From Escherichia phage TH12: a stretch of DNA of 64,000 nt. The notes beneath the pieces are model-generated. The model did no database searches. It was not told the DNA's origin and saw nothing but the letters and a program-made list of their open reading frames with translations. Position 1 is the stretch's first letter. Each line of letters starts with the position of its first letter. This document shows positions 3,897-62,984 of this stretch, piece by piece. The stretch lies in sequence record MT446390.1. The stretch is one strand, 5' to 3'. The translations under genes and the position numbers were made by a program.

Positions 3897-3946
3897 TTTA
3901 CTTCTCCTCTAGTTGTGTTACTATAGACTTGTCAACTAGAGGAGAA
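3896..3946 (+). promoter_or_regulatory. T4-type early promoter within 14-bp perfect inverted repeat that includes the regB SD
   Basis: gtttac 3896-3901, tactat 3919-3924; arms ttctcctctagttg 3902-3915 / caactagaggagaa 3933-3946. Confidence 0.65.
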
Positions 3947-3952
3947 ATCAAA

Positions 3953-7789: not shown

Positions 7790-7829
7790 TTTACATCTTG
7801 GTAGGACTATGTTATAGTAGTCCTACCAA
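7789..7829 (+). promoter_or_regulatory. T4-type early promoter with 11-bp inverted repeat flanking the -10
   Basis: gtttac 7789-7794, tatagt 7813-7818; arms ttggtaggact 7798-7808 / agtcctaccaa 7819-7829. Confidence 0.6.
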
Positions 7830-10135: not shown

Positions 10136-10153
10136 AAGGGCCTTCGGGCCCTT
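10136..10153 (+). terminator. Hairpin terminator candidate (UUCG loop)
   Basis: aagggcc-ttcg-ggccctt; weak T-tract. Confidence 0.5.
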
Positions 10154-10181: not shown

Positions 10182-10210
10182 GTGTACATGTTTTTAGGAT
10201 ATGTTATTAT
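10182..10210 (+). promoter_or_regulatory. T4-type early promoter
   Basis: gtgtac 10182-10187, 17-bp spacer, tattat 10205-10210, followed by tatagacctatcaa element. Confidence 0.55.
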
Positions 10211-10249
10211 AGACCTATCAAAACGAAATGAGTAAATTTGGAGAATAAA

Positions 10250-11230
10250 ATGTTCAACGTTCAAATCAAAAAAGGTATCTATCGTAATAATGAAATCTCC
10301 GGTTCTTATGTTGCCACAAAGACATGGTTCCCAGCAAAGCTTAATCCTGAATGTTCCCACTTAGGTGACGGTAAAATTTTCGTTATGATTGATGGTTCTG
10401 AACGTGGAGTATGGGTCTTCAAATCAGACATCGTAATGGAAGGAGTTGAGACGACACCAGTTGCAGTTGTTGAAAGCACTGAAGATATGAAAACTCGTAT
10501 CAACAAACGCTTTAAAGTAATGAACATGATGACGAATGGCATTATCGATGGCAAAATTCGTTCACTCATTATTTCAGGTGCAGCTGGTATTGGTAAGACG
10601 TATTCTCTGGATAAAGCGCTTAATAATGCTAATGATAATGGTTTCATCAAATACAAAAGCATTAATGGTAAAATCTCTGGTATTGGCCTTTACGAACAAC
10701 TTTGGCTCAACCGTGATGCAGACAGCGTTCTCTTAATCGACGATGTTGATGTATTCTCGGATATGGATATCTTGAACCTTCTTAAAGCAGCATTAGATAC
10801 TGGTGATAAACGCAAAGTTTGCTGGAGCACTGCATCATCTTATCTTGATGATAAGGGTATCGATAAAGAATTTGAGTTTGAAGGTACTATTGTTTTCATT
10901 ACAAACGTTGATATCGATAAAGAGTTAGAACGCGGTTCGAAACTTGCTCCGCACCTTCAAGCTTTAGTATCTCGTTCAGTGTATCTCGACCTTGGAGTAC
11001 ACTCTAATGAAGAGATTATGGTTCGAGTTGAAGATGTAATATTATCTACTGACATGATGCAGAAACGTGGTCTGACGGATGCAGAAACGTATAAAGCATT
11101 GTCCTGGATGAAGGCTAACGTATCTCGTCTTCGCAATGTATCATTACGTACGGCTCTTTATGTAGCAGATTTTATTTCAACCGATAAAGATGGTTGGGAG
11201 GAAATCTCTGAAGTAACTTTACTGAAATAA
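10250..11230 (+). CDS. AAA+ ATPase-like protein
   Basis: Walker A ISGAAGIGKT, Walker B VLLIDDVD; 326 aa; track start 10238 is TTG. Confidence 0.7.
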   Translation: MFNVQIKKGIYRNNEISGSYVATKTWFPAKLNPECSHLGDGKIFVMIDGSERGVWVFKSDIVMEGVETTPVAVVESTEDMKTRINKRFKVMNMMTNGIIDGKIRSLIISGAAGIGKTYSLDKALNNANDNGFIKYKSINGKISGIGLYEQLWLNRDADSVLLIDDVDVFSDMDILNLLKAALDTGDKRKVCWSTASSYLDDKGIDKEFEFEGTIVFITNVDIDKELERGSKLAPHLQALVSRSVYLDLGVHSNEEIMVRVEDVILSTDMMQKRGLTDAETYKALSWMKANVSRLRNVSLRTALYVADFISTDKDGWEEISEVTLLK

Positions 11231-11362
11231 GCTTATAGGAAGTTCTGAGGTAAGCCATAAAGATGAATAATCATATGGCTTACCTCAAAGAAGGACACCA
11301 GGAACCTACTGAGGGCATAGAAATATTTAAAATAATGATGTACAAATCAAAGAGGATATGTT

Positions 11363-11650
11363 ATGGATTTTATGCAAAAAAATAAAGCCGCAGTCGAACT
11401 CTATGCTCATCGTATGGTTAGTTCTACAATGCAATATAGCGAGGAAGTTCGCCAGGACTCTTCCTTGAAAGGAAAAACTAAAGCCTTAATTACCTTAGAT
11501 CGTTTGCAAAAGAATGCCATAGAGATGCTCCAGTACGACAAGAGTGTATATAAGAAAGAACAGGAAGAGAAACTTAAATCTGAAAAGTTACAGAAAACCC
11601 CGAAGTCGGTTTGGTTCAGTGGAAAAAATACTGAAAAAAGTTTCTTTTAG
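11363..11650 (+). CDS. Hypothetical protein (95 aa)
   Basis: ATG after AGAGGA. Confidence 0.55.
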   Translation: MDFMQKNKAAVELYAHRMVSSTMQYSEEVRQDSSLKGKTKALITLDRLQKNAIEMLQYDKSVYKKEQEEKLKSEKLQKTPKSVWFSGKNTEKSFF

Positions 11651-11708
11651 TTGTTTACAAGGTCTATGGTTGTGTTATTATAGACCTATCAACTACTGGA
11701 GGTAAAAC

Positions 11709-12236
11709 ATGAACGCTAAAGATATTTTCAACCTGGTAAATTATAACGACGGTAAATTTAAATCTGAAGCACAGAGCAAGTTCTTTAATGACGTTGCTTA
11801 TGGTAACGAGATTACCGTGGATGGAGGTCAGATTTTCAAATCTCGCTGGAATTGGATTGCTATCATCGATTCAGTTGGAATTGTGGAAGTCTACAAAAAC
11901 ACTAACAAAAAACGTACATTATTCTGGTCTCGTGAAACTAACGAACAGTACAAAAAGGATAAAGCATCTCGTTTATCCAAAGTAACCCAGGAAGATATCG
12001 AGTTTATCAAGAAAGATATCGAGATGTACGAAAATTTAATAGCTGAAGACCAGGCAGTACTCGATAAGTTTGATGAAATTAAAGCTTCTCGTGAAATCCC
12101 TGACTTCATGAAAGAAACAGTAAACGAACGATACGCTCTCACTTCAGAACGTATTGCAAACTATACAAAACAGAAAGCAGAACGTATTAGTACTCTTCGG
12201 AAATTTGAAGAACGTTTAAAGACGGTTCACGCATAA
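11709..12236 (+). CDS. Hypothetical protein (175 aa)
   Basis: ATG after TGGAGG; early promoter upstream. Confidence 0.6.
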   Translation: MNAKDIFNLVNYNDGKFKSEAQSKFFNDVAYGNEITVDGGQIFKSRWNWIAIIDSVGIVEVYKNTNKKRTLFWSRETNEQYKKDKASRLSKVTQEDIEFIKKDIEMYENLIAEDQAVLDKFDEIKASREIPDFMKETVNERYALTSERIANYTKQKAERISTLRKFEERLKTVHA

Positions 12237-22616: not shown

Positions 22617-22671
22617 TAGTTTATGATGGTAGGAAGATAACACTTCTTCCTACCAATTTGAGGAGAATATC

Positions 22672-32162: not shown

Positions 32163-32193
32163 AATGGGACTTCGGTCCCATTTGGAGTATAAT
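32163..32193 (+). promoter_or_regulatory. UUCG hairpin followed by GGAG-TATAAT (-10-like) upstream of gene 43
   Basis: aatgggac-ttcg-gtcccatt 32163-32182; tataat 32188-32193. Confidence 0.45.
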
Positions 32194-44601: not shown

Positions 44602-44605
44602 TAAA

Positions 44606-44625
44606 AAGGAGACTTCGGTCTCCTT
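44606..44625 (+). terminator. UUCG hairpin (terminator/processing candidate)
   Basis: aaggagac-ttcg-gtctcctt; short T-tract. Confidence 0.5.
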
Positions 44626-44689
44626 TCGGGGTTTACATCTTCCTCTAGGCATGATATGATGAACTTACACCAACCAAGAGGAAAACATT

Positions 44690-45064: not shown

Positions 45065-45115
45065 GTTTACTTCTCCGGTAGTTGTGTTATTATAGACCTA
45101 TCAACTACTGGAGAA
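45065..45115 (+). promoter_or_regulatory. T4-type early promoter with 14-bp inverted repeat sequestering the SD
   Basis: gtttac 45065-45070, tattat 45088-45093; arms ttctccggtagttg / caactactggagaa. Confidence 0.6.
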
Positions 45116-50422: not shown

Positions 50423-50430
50423 ATAATTTA

Positions 50431-50456
50431 AGGAATCCTTCGGGATTCCTTTTTTC
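50431..50456 (+). terminator. Intrinsic terminator
   Basis: aggaatcc-ttcg-ggattcct followed by ttttt. Confidence 0.7.
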
Positions 50457-57957: not shown

Positions 57958-57961
57958 AGTT

Positions 57962-58012
57962 GTTTACTTCTCCTCTGGTTTTGATATTATAACCATATCA
58001 ACCAGAGGAGAA
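57962..58012 (+). promoter_or_regulatory. T4-type early promoter with 13-bp perfect inverted repeat sequestering the SD
   Basis: gtttac 57962-57967, tattat 57985-57990; arms ttctcctctggtt 57968-57980 / aaccagaggagaa 58000-58012. Confidence 0.65.
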
Positions 58013-58016
58013 TAAT

Positions 58017-59849: not shown

Positions 59850-59866
59850 GGGCTTCGGCCCTTTTT
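59848..59866 (+). terminator. Intrinsic terminator
   Basis: aagggc-ttcg-gccctt followed by ttttt. Confidence 0.65.
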
Positions 59867-61733: not shown

Positions 61734-61747
61734 TTGATAGATGTCCT

Positions 61748-61775
61748 AAGCTCCTTCGGGAGCTTCATTTTAATT
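61748..61775 (+). terminator. Hairpin terminator candidate
   Basis: aagctcc-ttcg-ggagctt then cattttaatttt. Confidence 0.55.
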
Positions 61776-62892: not shown

Positions 62893-62984
62893 ATCCTGAA
62901 TAGCCTGAGGCACTATTACACATAAGATGATAGATTATATGGTCTTTAGTAATAGTGCCCTAGGAATCTACTGAAGAGAATATT

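Follow-up and report, generated by a model that had tools for sequence, protein, structure and literature searches.

Hairpin E1, which lies between nrdC.10 and nrdC.9 in the genome of Escherichia phage TH12 (MT446390.1), a Mosigvirus (RB69-like, T4-type coliphage), contains an inverted repeat that exceeds chance expectation in the window (i.e. the whole stretch of 64,000 nt analysed here). Of the readings considered, one in which this element acts as RNA has the best support. In the form that we favour, to which we would give about an even chance of being correct, E1 is a stem-loop in the sense early mRNA running through nrdC.10 and nrdC.9, attenuating transcription or protecting a 3' end. It would then be a local case of the hairpins found between cistrons, right after genes, in the variable early regions of T4-type phages. 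Acting in cis on the transcript, E1 would i) slow or partly halt RNA polymerase, ii) block 3'-to-5' exonucleases, thereby leaving the nrdC.10 message with a protected 3' end, and iii) limit read-through into nrdC.9, a gene without a detectable promoter of its own.

Structure and genomic setting of E1

E1 occupies positions 11246–11287, and its arms are 100% complementary over 14 bp (Table 1). Six of the 14 pairs are G-C, the predicted energy is -24.4 kcal/mol, and the 151-nt region around the hairpin has a folding z-score of -3.66. When 40 dinucleotide-preserving shuffles of the whole 64-kb window were searched (loop of 3–30 nt), perfect inverted repeats were at most 13 bp long, with 14 bp reached in 0/40; the unshuffled window has two perfect 14-bp repeats, E1 and one at 3902–3946. 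The original prediction had placed 13-bp arms at 11245–11257 and 11275–11287 around a 17-nt loop. The strings that it quoted are present (gaggtaagccata at 11247–11259 and tatggcttacctc at 11274–11286), but its coordinates were off by 1–2 bases, its loop length was wrong, and one extra T-A pair lengthens the stem to 14 bp. It was correct in describing a perfect inverted repeat that is intergenic (14 perfect pairs within the 132-nt spacer) and lacks a U-tract, since the stem is followed by AAAGAAGGACACC on the plus strand and by GAACTTCCTATAAGC on the minus strand. It placed the repeat "after the AAA+ ATPase gene", which is approximately correct: the ORF upstream is an nrdC.10 homologue, with Pfam AAA matches that are all under the curated thresholds.

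Table 1. Coordinates of E1, its surroundings and E2 in the 64-kb window
Feature	Position	Strand	Remarks
Early-promoter-like site TGTACA-16-TATTAT	10183–10210	+	Ahead of nrdC.10; start of the nrdC.10-nrdC.9 transcription unit
nrdC.10	10238–11230	+	Upstream gene; 330 aa, P-loop/AAA-like NTPase, phrog_1250
nrdC.10-nrdC.9 spacer	11231–11362	+	Non-coding, 132 nt; contains E1
E1 5' arm, TGAGGTAAGCCATA	11246–11259	+	SD-like GAGG inside; the relatives read have AACAA after GGT (5-nt bulge)
E1 loop, AAGATGAATAATCA	11260–11273	+	14 nt, A/T-rich; 3 internal pairs possible (GAU/AUC)
E1 3' arm, TATGGCTTACCTCA	11274–11287	+	Anti-SD-like CCTC inside
ORF starting in the E1 loop	11263–11385	+	40 codons; judged non-coding
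nrdC.9	11363–11650	+	Downstream gene; 95 aa, DUF7203
T4-type early promoter TTTACA-16-TATTAT	11654–11687	+	Ahead of nrdC.8; overlapping inverted repeat AGGTCTAT/ATAGACCT
E2	62893–62984	+	Upstream of rIIA.1; possible paralogous cassette; hairpin 62904–62964, -28.5 kcal/mol

E1 starts 16 nt after the nrdC.10 stop codon, and the SD sequence (GAGG) and ATG of nrdC.9 lie about 75 nt downstream of it. By promoter scan, the only promoter-like sites around the two genes are those at 10183–10210, preceded by a CUUCGG-type hairpin (10136–10153), and at 11654–11681, and no promoter-like site was found between E1 and nrdC.9. The downstream site with its inverted repeat is a cassette of the PeSL type, in which the stem-loop, located between the promoter boxes or overlapping them, has terminator or attenuator activity (PMC2839356; PMC4122927), and it closes the nrdC.10-nrdC.9 two-gene unit. 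Several clear PeSLs are present within the window, and other genera have PeSLs at the very position of E1. Reading of the sequence in and near E1 revealed neither a late promoter (TATAAATA) nor a middle promoter with a MotA box. Rfam 15 gave no match in the whole window at gathering thresholds, and in the region 11000–11800 at E<=10 only sub-threshold matches to microRNA precursors, which are generic hairpins matched by chance. In the literature searched, neither a paper on the nrdC.10/nrdC.9 spacer nor transcript-end data for this site in any T4-type phage were found.

The E1 loop contains an ATG at 11263 and a -10-like hexamer, AATAAT, neither of which is conserved in the relatives SHSML-52-1, PECP20 and Shf125875. 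The ORF starting at this ATG was rejected as a gene, since its frame shifts through A4/A5 and GGA/GGGC indels among close relatives, three relatives have ATT in place of its start codon, and it matched neither a Pfam nor a PHROG family. E1 was likewise rejected as a leader-peptide attenuator: the frame of the loop ORF changes, the ATG is lost in three relatives, and there is no U-tract terminator. Canonical Rho-independent terminators have a G+C-rich stem, a loop of about 3–8 nt and a U-run directly after the stem. E1, with its 14-nt loop, 6/14 G-C pairs and no U-run on either strand, was not called by the terminator scan and was rejected as a member of this class, as the original prediction had held in stating that it is not a typical intrinsic terminator; in the bulged relatives (see below), TTTTGTT follows the inner stem, on the minus strand only. 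Efficient intrinsic termination by E1 is unlikely because of the missing U-tract and the 14-nt loop, and for this reason we infer its role as attenuator or stabiliser from position alone. The suggestion that E1 is an attenuator thus holds only in a loose sense, that of a partial stop to transcription or a barrier at the 3' end, and not in the sense of leader-peptide or alternative-structure logic.

Stem-loops downstream of nrdC.10 in T4-like phages

About 40 distinct sequences following nrdC.10 were surveyed across T4-like genera. Every real spacer surveyed has a stem-loop of -12 to -24 kcal/mol directly after the nrdC.10 stop codon (shuffle means of about -6 to -12), with stems that are unrelated in sequence between spacer types, and no such stem-loop was found in phages whose next gene begins within about 15 nt. 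Going by their sequences, some of these hairpins are canonical terminators and some are PeSL cassettes; U-tracts are present in L055, L064, L065, L057 and L035, and GTTTACA with a -10 in the loop in L012–L016, L053, L054 and L042. Since a stem-loop occurs in every sampled real spacer type and the stems share no sequence, this position is a convenient natural series for the effects of U-tract-less hairpins on phage early transcripts.

Among 25 spacer types, the sense hairpin was the stabler in 16 and the antisense hairpin in 5, with 4 ties (Wilcoxon p = 0.004). This bias is the pattern expected from the use of G-U pairs in RNA; such pairs are present in hairpins at the position of E1 in other T4-like phages and are functional in sense-strand RNA only. 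As the two strands of E1 itself fold about equally (-24.4 vs -25.7), the sense-strand argument for E1 is drawn from these analogues. The intergenic hairpins of this window, taken alone, show a sense bias that is not significant (14 vs 8, p = 0.11).

RB69 apart, the Mosigviruses show about 96% conservation of the spacer, and across 143 genomes its conservation matches that of the flanking genes. RB69 lacks this spacer; in RB69 and the IMG/VR relative L006, nrdC.10 is joined to nrdC.9 via a 12-nt spacer, and the Dhakaviruses, also without the spacer, have a junction much like that of RB69. Any function of E1 must therefore be dispensable. The three substitutions seen within or beside the stem in Mosigvirus relatives weaken the pairing and do not compensate, and weaker stems are found in L005 (-14.9 kcal/mol) and SHSML-52-1 (-12.8 kcal/mol). 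Compensatory changes were not found in the Mosigvirus (A4), Tequatrovirus (A2) or E2 (A5) alignments, a result explained by divergence being too low (Mosigvirus relatives, 96% identity). In the record of phage SA35RD, the hairpin is labelled a terminator on the basis of a WebGeSTer prediction, as is the T4-type hairpin in SA21RB; the authors of these records had scanned for T4 early, middle and late promoter patterns, and only a terminator was annotated here. E1 is thus of little importance alone, given that one relative's record already says "terminator" and that such hairpins in T4-type early regions have been known for decades.

In T4, the nrdC.10-nrdC.9 spacer is 94 nt long, can be aligned with the 132-nt spacer and carries a hairpin with a 9-bp stem (GGCAGTTCA-13 nt-TGGACTGCC), conserved in 503 Tequatrovirus records. 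The two hairpins share the identical map position, an A/T-rich core ending in ATATGG, the preceding ACAAAA, the lack of a sense-strand U-tract and a WebGeSTer terminator call in one record each, but differ in their arms and in the register of pairing. Taken alone, the similarity between the E1 and T4 spacers is not significant (Smith-Waterman shuffle p = 0.11), and nhmmer gave no match. Past remodelling is indicated by a stretch at 11335–11354 (ATGATG...TCAAAG), which can be aligned to the start of T4 nrdC.9 but is not in frame in this genome.

These comparisons bear on a possible but distinctly less favoured explanation, that the spacer is recombination debris of the hyperplastic early region, made up of a decayed promoter/stem-loop cassette and the displaced original start of nrdC.9, and that the hairpin is functionless and its perfect stem a recent accident. 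The out-of-frame match to the T4 nrdC.9 start fits such a history, as do the poor promoter-like hexamers of E1 (<=8/12, under the scan threshold), the tolerance of relatives for stem-weakening substitutions and indels, and the phages that manage without the spacer (RB69, L006 and the Dhakaviruses). However, neutral debris would not be expected to show stem-loops recurring at the exact position in all sampled real spacer types, with unrelated stems and a sense bias, and T4 and the Mosigviruses keep a hairpin round the alignable A/T-rich core even though the arms differ; the conservation of the spacer at the level of the flanking genes also argues against it.

C(UUCG)G-type intercistronic tetraloop hairpins, reportedly described by Tuerk et al. 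in 1988, and intrinsic terminators are known elements of T4, and at least 6 hairpins of the CUUCGG type are present in the window. E1 resembles these elements in lying just past a stop codon in an early polycistronic unit and in its presumed role in termination or 3'-end stability, but has a long A/U-rich loop, no U-tract and a much longer stem. With its GAGG arm, CCUC arm and nearby AUG, it also resembles the T4 early hairpins that sequester the ribosome-binding sites of genes e, soc, 49, I-TevI and mobE (PMC3014915). However, the GAGG and AUG of E1 are part of no conserved ORF, and the true initiation region of nrdC.9 is 75 nt away and unpaired in the full-length fold. A translational switch could be envisaged in which the 3' arm (…CAUAUGGCUUACCUC) is an anti-SD/anti-AUG for the nrdC.9 start, held by a 5' arm resembling an SD plus spacer, such that nrdC.9 would be repressed on RNA lacking the 5' arm. 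When the 5' arm is removed, the minimum-energy fold indeed pairs the 3' arm with GAGGAUAUGUUAUGG, and the SD G residues become more likely to be paired (probability of about 0.45, up from about 0.1). The effect is nevertheless modest, at -16 kcal/mol over 124 nt the alternative fold is weak, and neither a promoter nor a processing site is known from which such an RNA would arise. We consider this switch very unlikely.

Origin of the perfect stem and relation to PeSLs

In all 143 phage-database records with the spacer, it is 5–7 nt longer than in this genome, and all 13 relatives read directly (10 from phage records, 1 IMG/VR contig and 2 metagenome contigs) have the AACAA bulge in the 5' arm. 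A private 5-bp deletion thus accounts for the perfect stem. The deletion allele was also sought elsewhere, with 0 matches in IMG/VR and both metagenome matches bulged. The bulged form is predicted to fold into 7 pairs, the 5-nt bulge and 7 pairs, and the deletion would lift the predicted stability from -18.5 kcal/mol (bulged consensus) to -24.4 kcal/mol, compared with -13.9 kcal/mol for the T4 hairpin. Judged from these sequences, the element is normally bulged in this lineage, and the perfect 14-bp stem is the exception. The original prediction, made from the letters of a single genome, could not have shown that only here is the stem perfect.

Exact loss of the bulge is what would be expected of a quasipalindrome-templated (template-switch) or slippage deletion. 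Quasipalindromes are hotspots of template-switch mutations that make arms perfect (PMC7202029, PMC8794818). As in quasipalindrome correction, an imperfect repeat in E1 was made perfect by one event removing exactly the unpaired bases of one arm; however, simple slippage between the flanking AA dinucleotides gives the identical product, and the mechanism covers only the origin of this allele and not the role of the hairpin. The E1 deletion may be considered a clean natural case of such correction in a relative of the phage, T4, in whose rIIB gene these mutations were reportedly first described. It also cautions that a "perfect" repeat in one genome may be a mutational accident and not a selected form.

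E1 may be the stem-loop remnant of a PeSL, as its layout would correspond to the stem-loop part with a decayed promoter: weak -35-like sequences (GTTCTG/GTAACA) precede the stem, and the -10-like AATAAT lies in the loop. Like PeSLs (Arbiol et al. 2010, PMC2839356; Comeau et al. 2014, PMC4122927), E1 is an intergenic, stable stem-loop in a hyperplastic early region, right after a non-essential ORF, in a spacer whose presence varies between close relatives (RB69 vs other Mosigviruses). In contrast to PeSLs, defined in the T4 group by TTTACW-N17-TAYWAT overlapping the stem-loop, i) E1 lacks a credible early promoter, having no GTTTAC and sigma-70 hexamers of <=8/12 matches (the best candidates, TTCTGA-N17-AATAAT and GTTCTG-N14-GATG-AATAAT, went unreported by the scan), ii) its loop is large (14 nt), iii) about 75 nt separate it from the next SD, which in a PeSL comes at once, and iv) it has at most two copies (in the 64-kb window and 50 kb of phage JS09) and one in the whole T4 genome, whereas PeSLs have many copies per genome.

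Whether E1 is instead an active PeSL, with a sigma-70 promoter whose -10 lies in the loop, was also considered; transcripts would start inside the hairpin without the 5' arm, and the stem-loop would form only on read-through RNA. The spacing in this allele, GTTCTG-N14-GATG-AATAAT, fits the T4 early pattern GTTTAC-N14-gtggTAttaT, but the extra 5 nt set the hexamers 22–23 nt apart in every relative read. Of the 7 longest inverted repeats in the window, 5 combine a -10 in the loop with GTTTAC (in one case GTTTAT) placed at the 5' end of the stem or no more than 3–4 nt from it, cassettes of this kind directly follow nrdC.10 in other genera, and T4 has a canonical early promoter at the position of E2. 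Against this, the -35 of E1 is poor (GTTCTG, 3/6) and the promoter scan did not call the site, three relatives carry the loop changes TG to TT and AATAAT to AATAAC, which would abolish a -10, and the promoter-pattern search by the authors of the SA35RD and SA21RB records gave only the terminator annotation here. We therefore consider an active promoter at E1 unlikely.

E2 and a possible class of hairpins

No other intergenic hairpins in the window are as stable as E1 and E2, and these two are also the only long ones lacking both GTTTAC and a U-tract; they have long stems and large structured loops. The stem of E2 is unlike that of E1 but surrounds a similar loop motif (CATAAGATGATAGATTATATGG), and a similar sequence, AGGAAYCTACTGARG, lies downstream. 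The arms of the E2 and T4 copies are completely different from those of E1, and the loop is conserved.

The separate character of these two hairpins could be taken to favour cleavage by RNase III, or by another double-strand-specific enzyme, at a site splitting the nrdC.10 and nrdC.9 messages, as could the long, perfect helix without a terminator tail. Typical E. coli RNase III substrates, however, span about two helical turns (roughly 20 bp or more), and the E1 helix has 14 (+3) bp; the normal allele of the lineage is shorter and bulged (7+7 bp), and the T4 counterpart has only 9 bp. RNase III goes unmentioned in a review of T4 mRNA decay, which deals with RNase E, RegB, RNase LS and exonucleases. 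We regard processing at E1 as quite unlikely, and nothing was found in support of the RNase III site that the original prediction had listed.

A role at the DNA level, i.e. as a palindrome for a dimeric protein, a cruciform or an antisense (minus-strand) terminator, is the most improbable reading considered here. The equal stability of E1 on both strands is compatible with it, as is a T-tract (TTTTTGT or TTTTGTT) that comes after the hairpin on the minus strand in T4 and in the bulged Mosigvirus allele, but the deletion in this genome takes this tract away. In T4, a G-U pair leaves the minus-strand hairpin much weaker than the sense one (-8.7 vs -13.9), and this asymmetry, together with the sense bias of the wider hairpin class, weakens the case for a minus-strand terminator. 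Half-sites 14 nt apart, one of them interrupted by 5 extra nt in all relatives read, do not suit a dimer operator, and it is the loop, not the arms, that is conserved between the T4, E1 and E2 copies. The protein-binding palindrome proposed earlier is thus opposed by the unconserved arms (Mosigvirus, T4 and E2), by the bulge and by the G-U pairs in the analogues.

Smith-Waterman shuffle tests gave p = 0.0015 for E2-T4, 0.01 for E1-E2 and 0.11 for E1-T4, values that make a family of the three suggestive only. Single nhmmer queries with E1, E2 or the T4 spacer did not retrieve the others; a profile of all three, run against the window, the whole genome of T4 and 50 kb of JS09, gave no additional copy, and motif scans matched only at the three known places. 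On these grounds it is rather unlikely, though conceivable, that E1, E2 and the T4 hairpin represent a small, undescribed class of T-even intergenic RNAs, in which an A/T-rich loop motif (…GATGA-WWARAT-YATATGG) is carried on differing stems. If real, such a class might, for example, provide the site of a phage or host RNA-binding protein, or be a promoterless mobile regulatory cassette distinct from PeSLs.

The repeat between nrdC.10 and nrdC.9

The window belongs to Mosigvirus, the RB69 group of T4-type coliphages; the 2.1-kb stretch around the hairpin under study (E1) shares 98.7% identity with Escherichia phage LF82-1 and 97–98% with JS09, ST0 and many others. E1 starts 16 nt past the nrdC.10 stop codon, within a 132-nt spacer of the early two-gene unit nrdC.10-nrdC.9, which is flanked by promoter-like sites. 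NrdC.10 gave only sub-threshold matches to AAA/P-loop families of Pfam, and NrdC.9 is DUF7203. A promoter scan between E1 and nrdC.9 called no site.

Both strings quoted in the original prediction, which described 13-bp arms around a 17-nt loop, were found, at 11247–11259 (gaggtaagccata) and 11274–11286 (tatggcttacctc), 1–2 bases away from where they had been placed. A repeat finder added a T-A pair, giving 14-nt arms with 100% complementarity and 14 nt, not 17, between them. The RNA is predicted to fold at -24.4 kcal/mol, with 3 additional pairs within the loop (z-score -3.66 for the 151-nt region around E1). Inspection of the sequence confirmed the claimed lack of a U-tract after the stem, and this holds for both strands. 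When the 64-kb window was shuffled 40 times with dinucleotides preserved, the longest perfect inverted repeat (loop 3–30 nt) was 13 bp and 14 bp was reached in 0 of 40, whereas the actual sequence contains two of 14 bp, E1 and one at 3902–3946; the repeat is not due to chance. It fits no Rfam family.

Coordinates and loci of the features discussed
Feature	Position in window, or locus	Remark
nrdC.10	10238–11230	upstream of E1; RB69 and T4 annotations
E1 arms	11246–11259; 11274–11287	
nrdC.9	11363–11650	downstream of E1; RB69 and T4 annotations
Promoter-like site	10183–10210	ahead of nrdC.10; CUUCGG-type hairpin precedes
Promoter-like site	11654–11681	ahead of nrdC.8; short inverted repeat overlaps
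Frame-shifting indels	11321–11324; 11354–11356	A4/A5 run; GGA/GGGC
PeSL-type cassettes	683–748; 3897–3951; 7790–7829; 22617–22662; 45065–45115; 57958–58016	GTTTAC/GTTTAT 5' of stem, -10-like box in loop
CUUCGG-type tetraloop hairpins	10136–10153; 32163–32182; 44605–44626; 50430–50451; 59850–59861; 61739–61770	intergenic
E2 (second hairpin)	62893–62984; hairpin 62904–62964	between RB69ORF003c homologue and rIIA.1
Textbook terminators after nrdC.10	L055, L064, L065, L057, L035	with U-tracts
Bare tetraloop hairpins after nrdC.10	some types	GGGGCGAAAGCCCC
Promoter/stem-loop cassettes after nrdC.10 (~10)	L012–L016, L053, L054, L042, L060, L063	

An ATG at 11263, 12 nt past the GAGG of the 5' arm (17 nt in relatives), begins a 40-codon ORF extending across the start of nrdC.9. 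It was rejected as a gene: the ATG is ATT in 3 relatives, two indels (Table) move the frame among relatives, and no Pfam or PHROG family was matched. In phage SQ17 (MW882907.1, 341–730), 2 extra spacer bases place this ATG in frame with nrdC.9, and the annotated 129-aa 'NrdC.9', the loop ORF fused to nrdC.9, probably results from mis-annotation of a non-coding indel polymorphism.

Remodelling in this lineage seems to have affected the 5' end of nrdC.9 itself. The segment at 11335–11354 (ATGATGTACAAATCAAAG) aligns with the T4 nrdC.9 start (ATGATGTTATACTCAAAG) out of frame with the Mosigvirus gene body, which begins at a new SD and ATG at 11352–11365, and RB69 has a third version. In RB69 (1570–1640), an extra base (aactggataaag versus aaccgataaag) creates an early stop in the annotated nrdC.10 (312 aa versus 326–330), after which the frame runs on to the usual ...ctgaaatga position, attributable to a frameshift or to faulty sequencing of the reference.

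Origin of the perfect stem

A query with the spacer alone matched 143 phage records, in all of which the match covers 143–145 bases versus 138 in the query, at no more than 96.5% identity. All the relatives read directly (LF82-2, PECP20, Shf125875, PhAPEC2, SA35RD, SHSML-52-1, SQ17, AV109, 308Ecol101PP and the IMG/VR contig L005) carry GAGGTAACAAAAGCCATA where the window has GAGGTAAGCCATA; two metagenome contigs, retrieved with a pattern permitting either form, both have the extra AACAA, and the deleted form found no match in the IMG/VR scan. The perfect stem is unique to this genome. Because the relatives carry the extra bases and the deleted form is unmatched, the normal element of the lineage is a bulged stem, predicted to fold as 7 pairs, a 5-nt bulge and 7 pairs at -18.5 kcal/mol (variants: L005, -14.9; SHSML-52-1, -12.8), and the bases missing from the window are exactly the bulged ones. 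One event turning an imperfect inverted repeat into a perfect one is the hallmark of template switching at quasipalindromes (PMC7202029, PMC8794818); the identical change would also arise if slippage occurred between the AA dinucleotides on either side, and an assembly error in the source genome is possible.

As to conservation, the spacer and its bulged hairpin are present in relatives, but the perfect stem is in none of those read and the spacer is nearly gone in RB69. Among the relatives, whose spacers are 96% identical, no compensatory changes in the stem were found, and the 3 substitutions in or next to it all weaken it. Of the roles first proposed for the repeat, an RNase III-type site is quite improbable, since its helix is not long enough, the usual allele carries a bulge and the enzyme goes unmentioned in a T4 decay review. 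It is highly improbable that E1 is an anti-anti-SD switch for nrdC.9, as might be suggested by the predicted fold lacking the 5' arm, in which the 3' arm pairs through partial complementarity with the nrdC.9 SD/AUG (11352–11367) and the SD pairing probability rises from ~0.1 to ~0.45.

Stem-loops after nrdC.10 in T4-type phages

In RB69, the IMG/VR relative L006 and the Dhakaviruses, the nrdC.10 stop is followed after ~8–12 nt by the next start codon, leaving almost no spacer; the phages can therefore dispense with the element. The T4 spacer is 94 nt long and holds another hairpin (GGCAGTTCA-13 nt-TGGACTGCC), kept at ≥90% identity in 503 Tequatrovirus records. MAFFT aligned the T4 and Mosigvirus spacers via ACAAAA, an A/T-rich loop, ...ATATGG and the T4 nrdC.9 start (TAATGATGT...TCAAAG), the last being out of frame with the gene body in Mosigviruses, but this similarity alone is not significant (shuffle p = 0.11). 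In some Tequatroviruses (locus L032; records RB32, RB33, RB6), a homing-endonuclease gene, annotated 'site-specific intron-like DNA endonuclease', lies between the nrdC.10 stop and spacer position 16, and the T4-type hairpin persists downstream of it.

In a survey of ~56 IMG/VR loci encoding NrdC.10 relatives (several contigs twice), a stem-loop of -12 to -24 kcal/mol occurs in the first 60 nt after nrdC.10 in each distinct type with a real spacer (shuffle means ~ -6 to -12), and loci where the next gene starts within ~15 nt lack one. The stems show no sequence relationship and include terminators, tetraloop hairpins and cassettes with GTTTACA just upstream and a TATAGT/TATAAT-like box in the loop (Table). 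The latter match the promoter-early stem-loop (PeSL) cassettes of T4-type phages, in which the stem-loop sits between or over promoter boxes and acts as a terminator or attenuator (PMC2839356, PMC4122927). Stem-loops thus recur at this position across genera, which argues against the main rival reading, that the spacer is left over from recombination and has no function; this reading, consistent with the stem damage tolerated in relatives and the spacer loss in RB69, is rather unlikely.

G-U pairs stabilise the RNA of one strand only. With hairpins optimised separately per strand for 25 distinct post-nrdC.10 spacer types, not all phylogenetically independent, 16 were more stable on the sense strand, 5 on the antisense and 4 on neither (mean sense-antisense difference -1.6 kcal/mol, Wilcoxon p = 0.004). 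The T4 hairpin (-13.9 versus -8.7) and E2 (-28.5 versus -22.6) show the same bias; the perfect E1 hairpin is symmetric (-24.4 versus -25.7), and the 24 strong intergenic hairpins of the window show a weak sense bias (14 versus 8, p = 0.11). Taken together, the bias in the spacer types, T4 and E2 argues against a DNA palindrome and a minus-strand terminator, and favours E1 as a sense-strand RNA element. The minus-strand terminator, suggested by TTTTTGT/TTTTGTT following the hairpins of T4 and of the bulged Mosigvirus allele, was weakened by this comparison; the window's deletion of 5 bases removes the T-run in any case. The originally proposed protein-binding palindrome also fails the dimer-operator test on arm conservation, and a DNA-level or antisense element is the least probable of all.

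E1 differs from a canonical terminator in its loop and lack of a U-tract tail, and from a full PeSL in copy number and lack of a credible promoter; the most suitable class for it is that of intercistronic stem-loops with neither promoter nor U-tract. An active promoter cassette is improbable: the window allele fits the spacing GTTTAC-N14-gtgg-TAttaT as GTTCTG-N14-GATG-AATAAT, but the spacing misfits in every relative read and the -10 is mutated in 3. We consider it about an even chance that E1 would form in the early sense transcript and act in cis as a partial transcription stop and/or a 3'-exonuclease barrier, which would give the nrdC.10 RNA a protected end and limit nrdC.9 expression, E1 probably being what remains of a PeSL-type cassette, its stem-loop half. 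The original interpretation is partly supported, its attenuator surviving loosely as the partial stop or 3' barrier.

Intercistronic hairpins of T4 early regions and PeSL stem-loops are already established; a search for literature on the nrdC.10-nrdC.9 spacer found neither a publication nor transcript-end data. The bulged E1 is annotated 'rho-independent terminator (WebGeSTer)' in the SA35RD record, as is the T4-type spacer hairpin in that of SA21RB.

Other hairpins of the window

In five of the seven longest inverted repeats, GTTTAC (once GTTTAT) abuts the 5' side of the stem or lies a few bases from it, the loop carries a -10-like box and the 3' arm often contains the next gene's SD; these five are PeSL cassettes, with an architecture like that of the RBS-sequestering hairpins known in T4 early transcripts (PMC3014915). 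The stems of the six PeSL-type cassettes listed are 10–14 bp, and several hold the SD (GAGGAG) in the 3' arm; read-through RNA would hide the SD and promoter-initiated RNA would not. At least two CUUCGG-type hairpins (50430–50451, 59850–59861) are directly followed by T-runs and are classic T4-style terminators.

The exceptions among the seven are E1 and E2, the two most stable intergenic hairpins of the window (E2 ranking first), which lack GTTTAC and a U-tract and have large structured loops. They share, in the same order, CTGAGG, CATAA(A)GATGA, AT(C/T)ATATGG and AGGAA(C/T)CTACTGA(G/A)G (shuffle p = 0.01), and a 13-mer of E2 (ATAGATTATATGG) recurs without mismatch in the loop of the T4 nrdC.10/nrdC.9 hairpin (p = 0.0015). 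nhmmer did not link the three to each other, and no further copies were found in the window, the whole T4 genome or 50 kb of JS09. The family is a lead, not a result, and it is doubtful that the three form a small class with a conserved loop motif on variable stems, e.g. a protein-binding RNA. E2 hardly varies in SA35RD and RB69, and its map position in T4 is occupied by a canonical early promoter together with a short inverted repeat.
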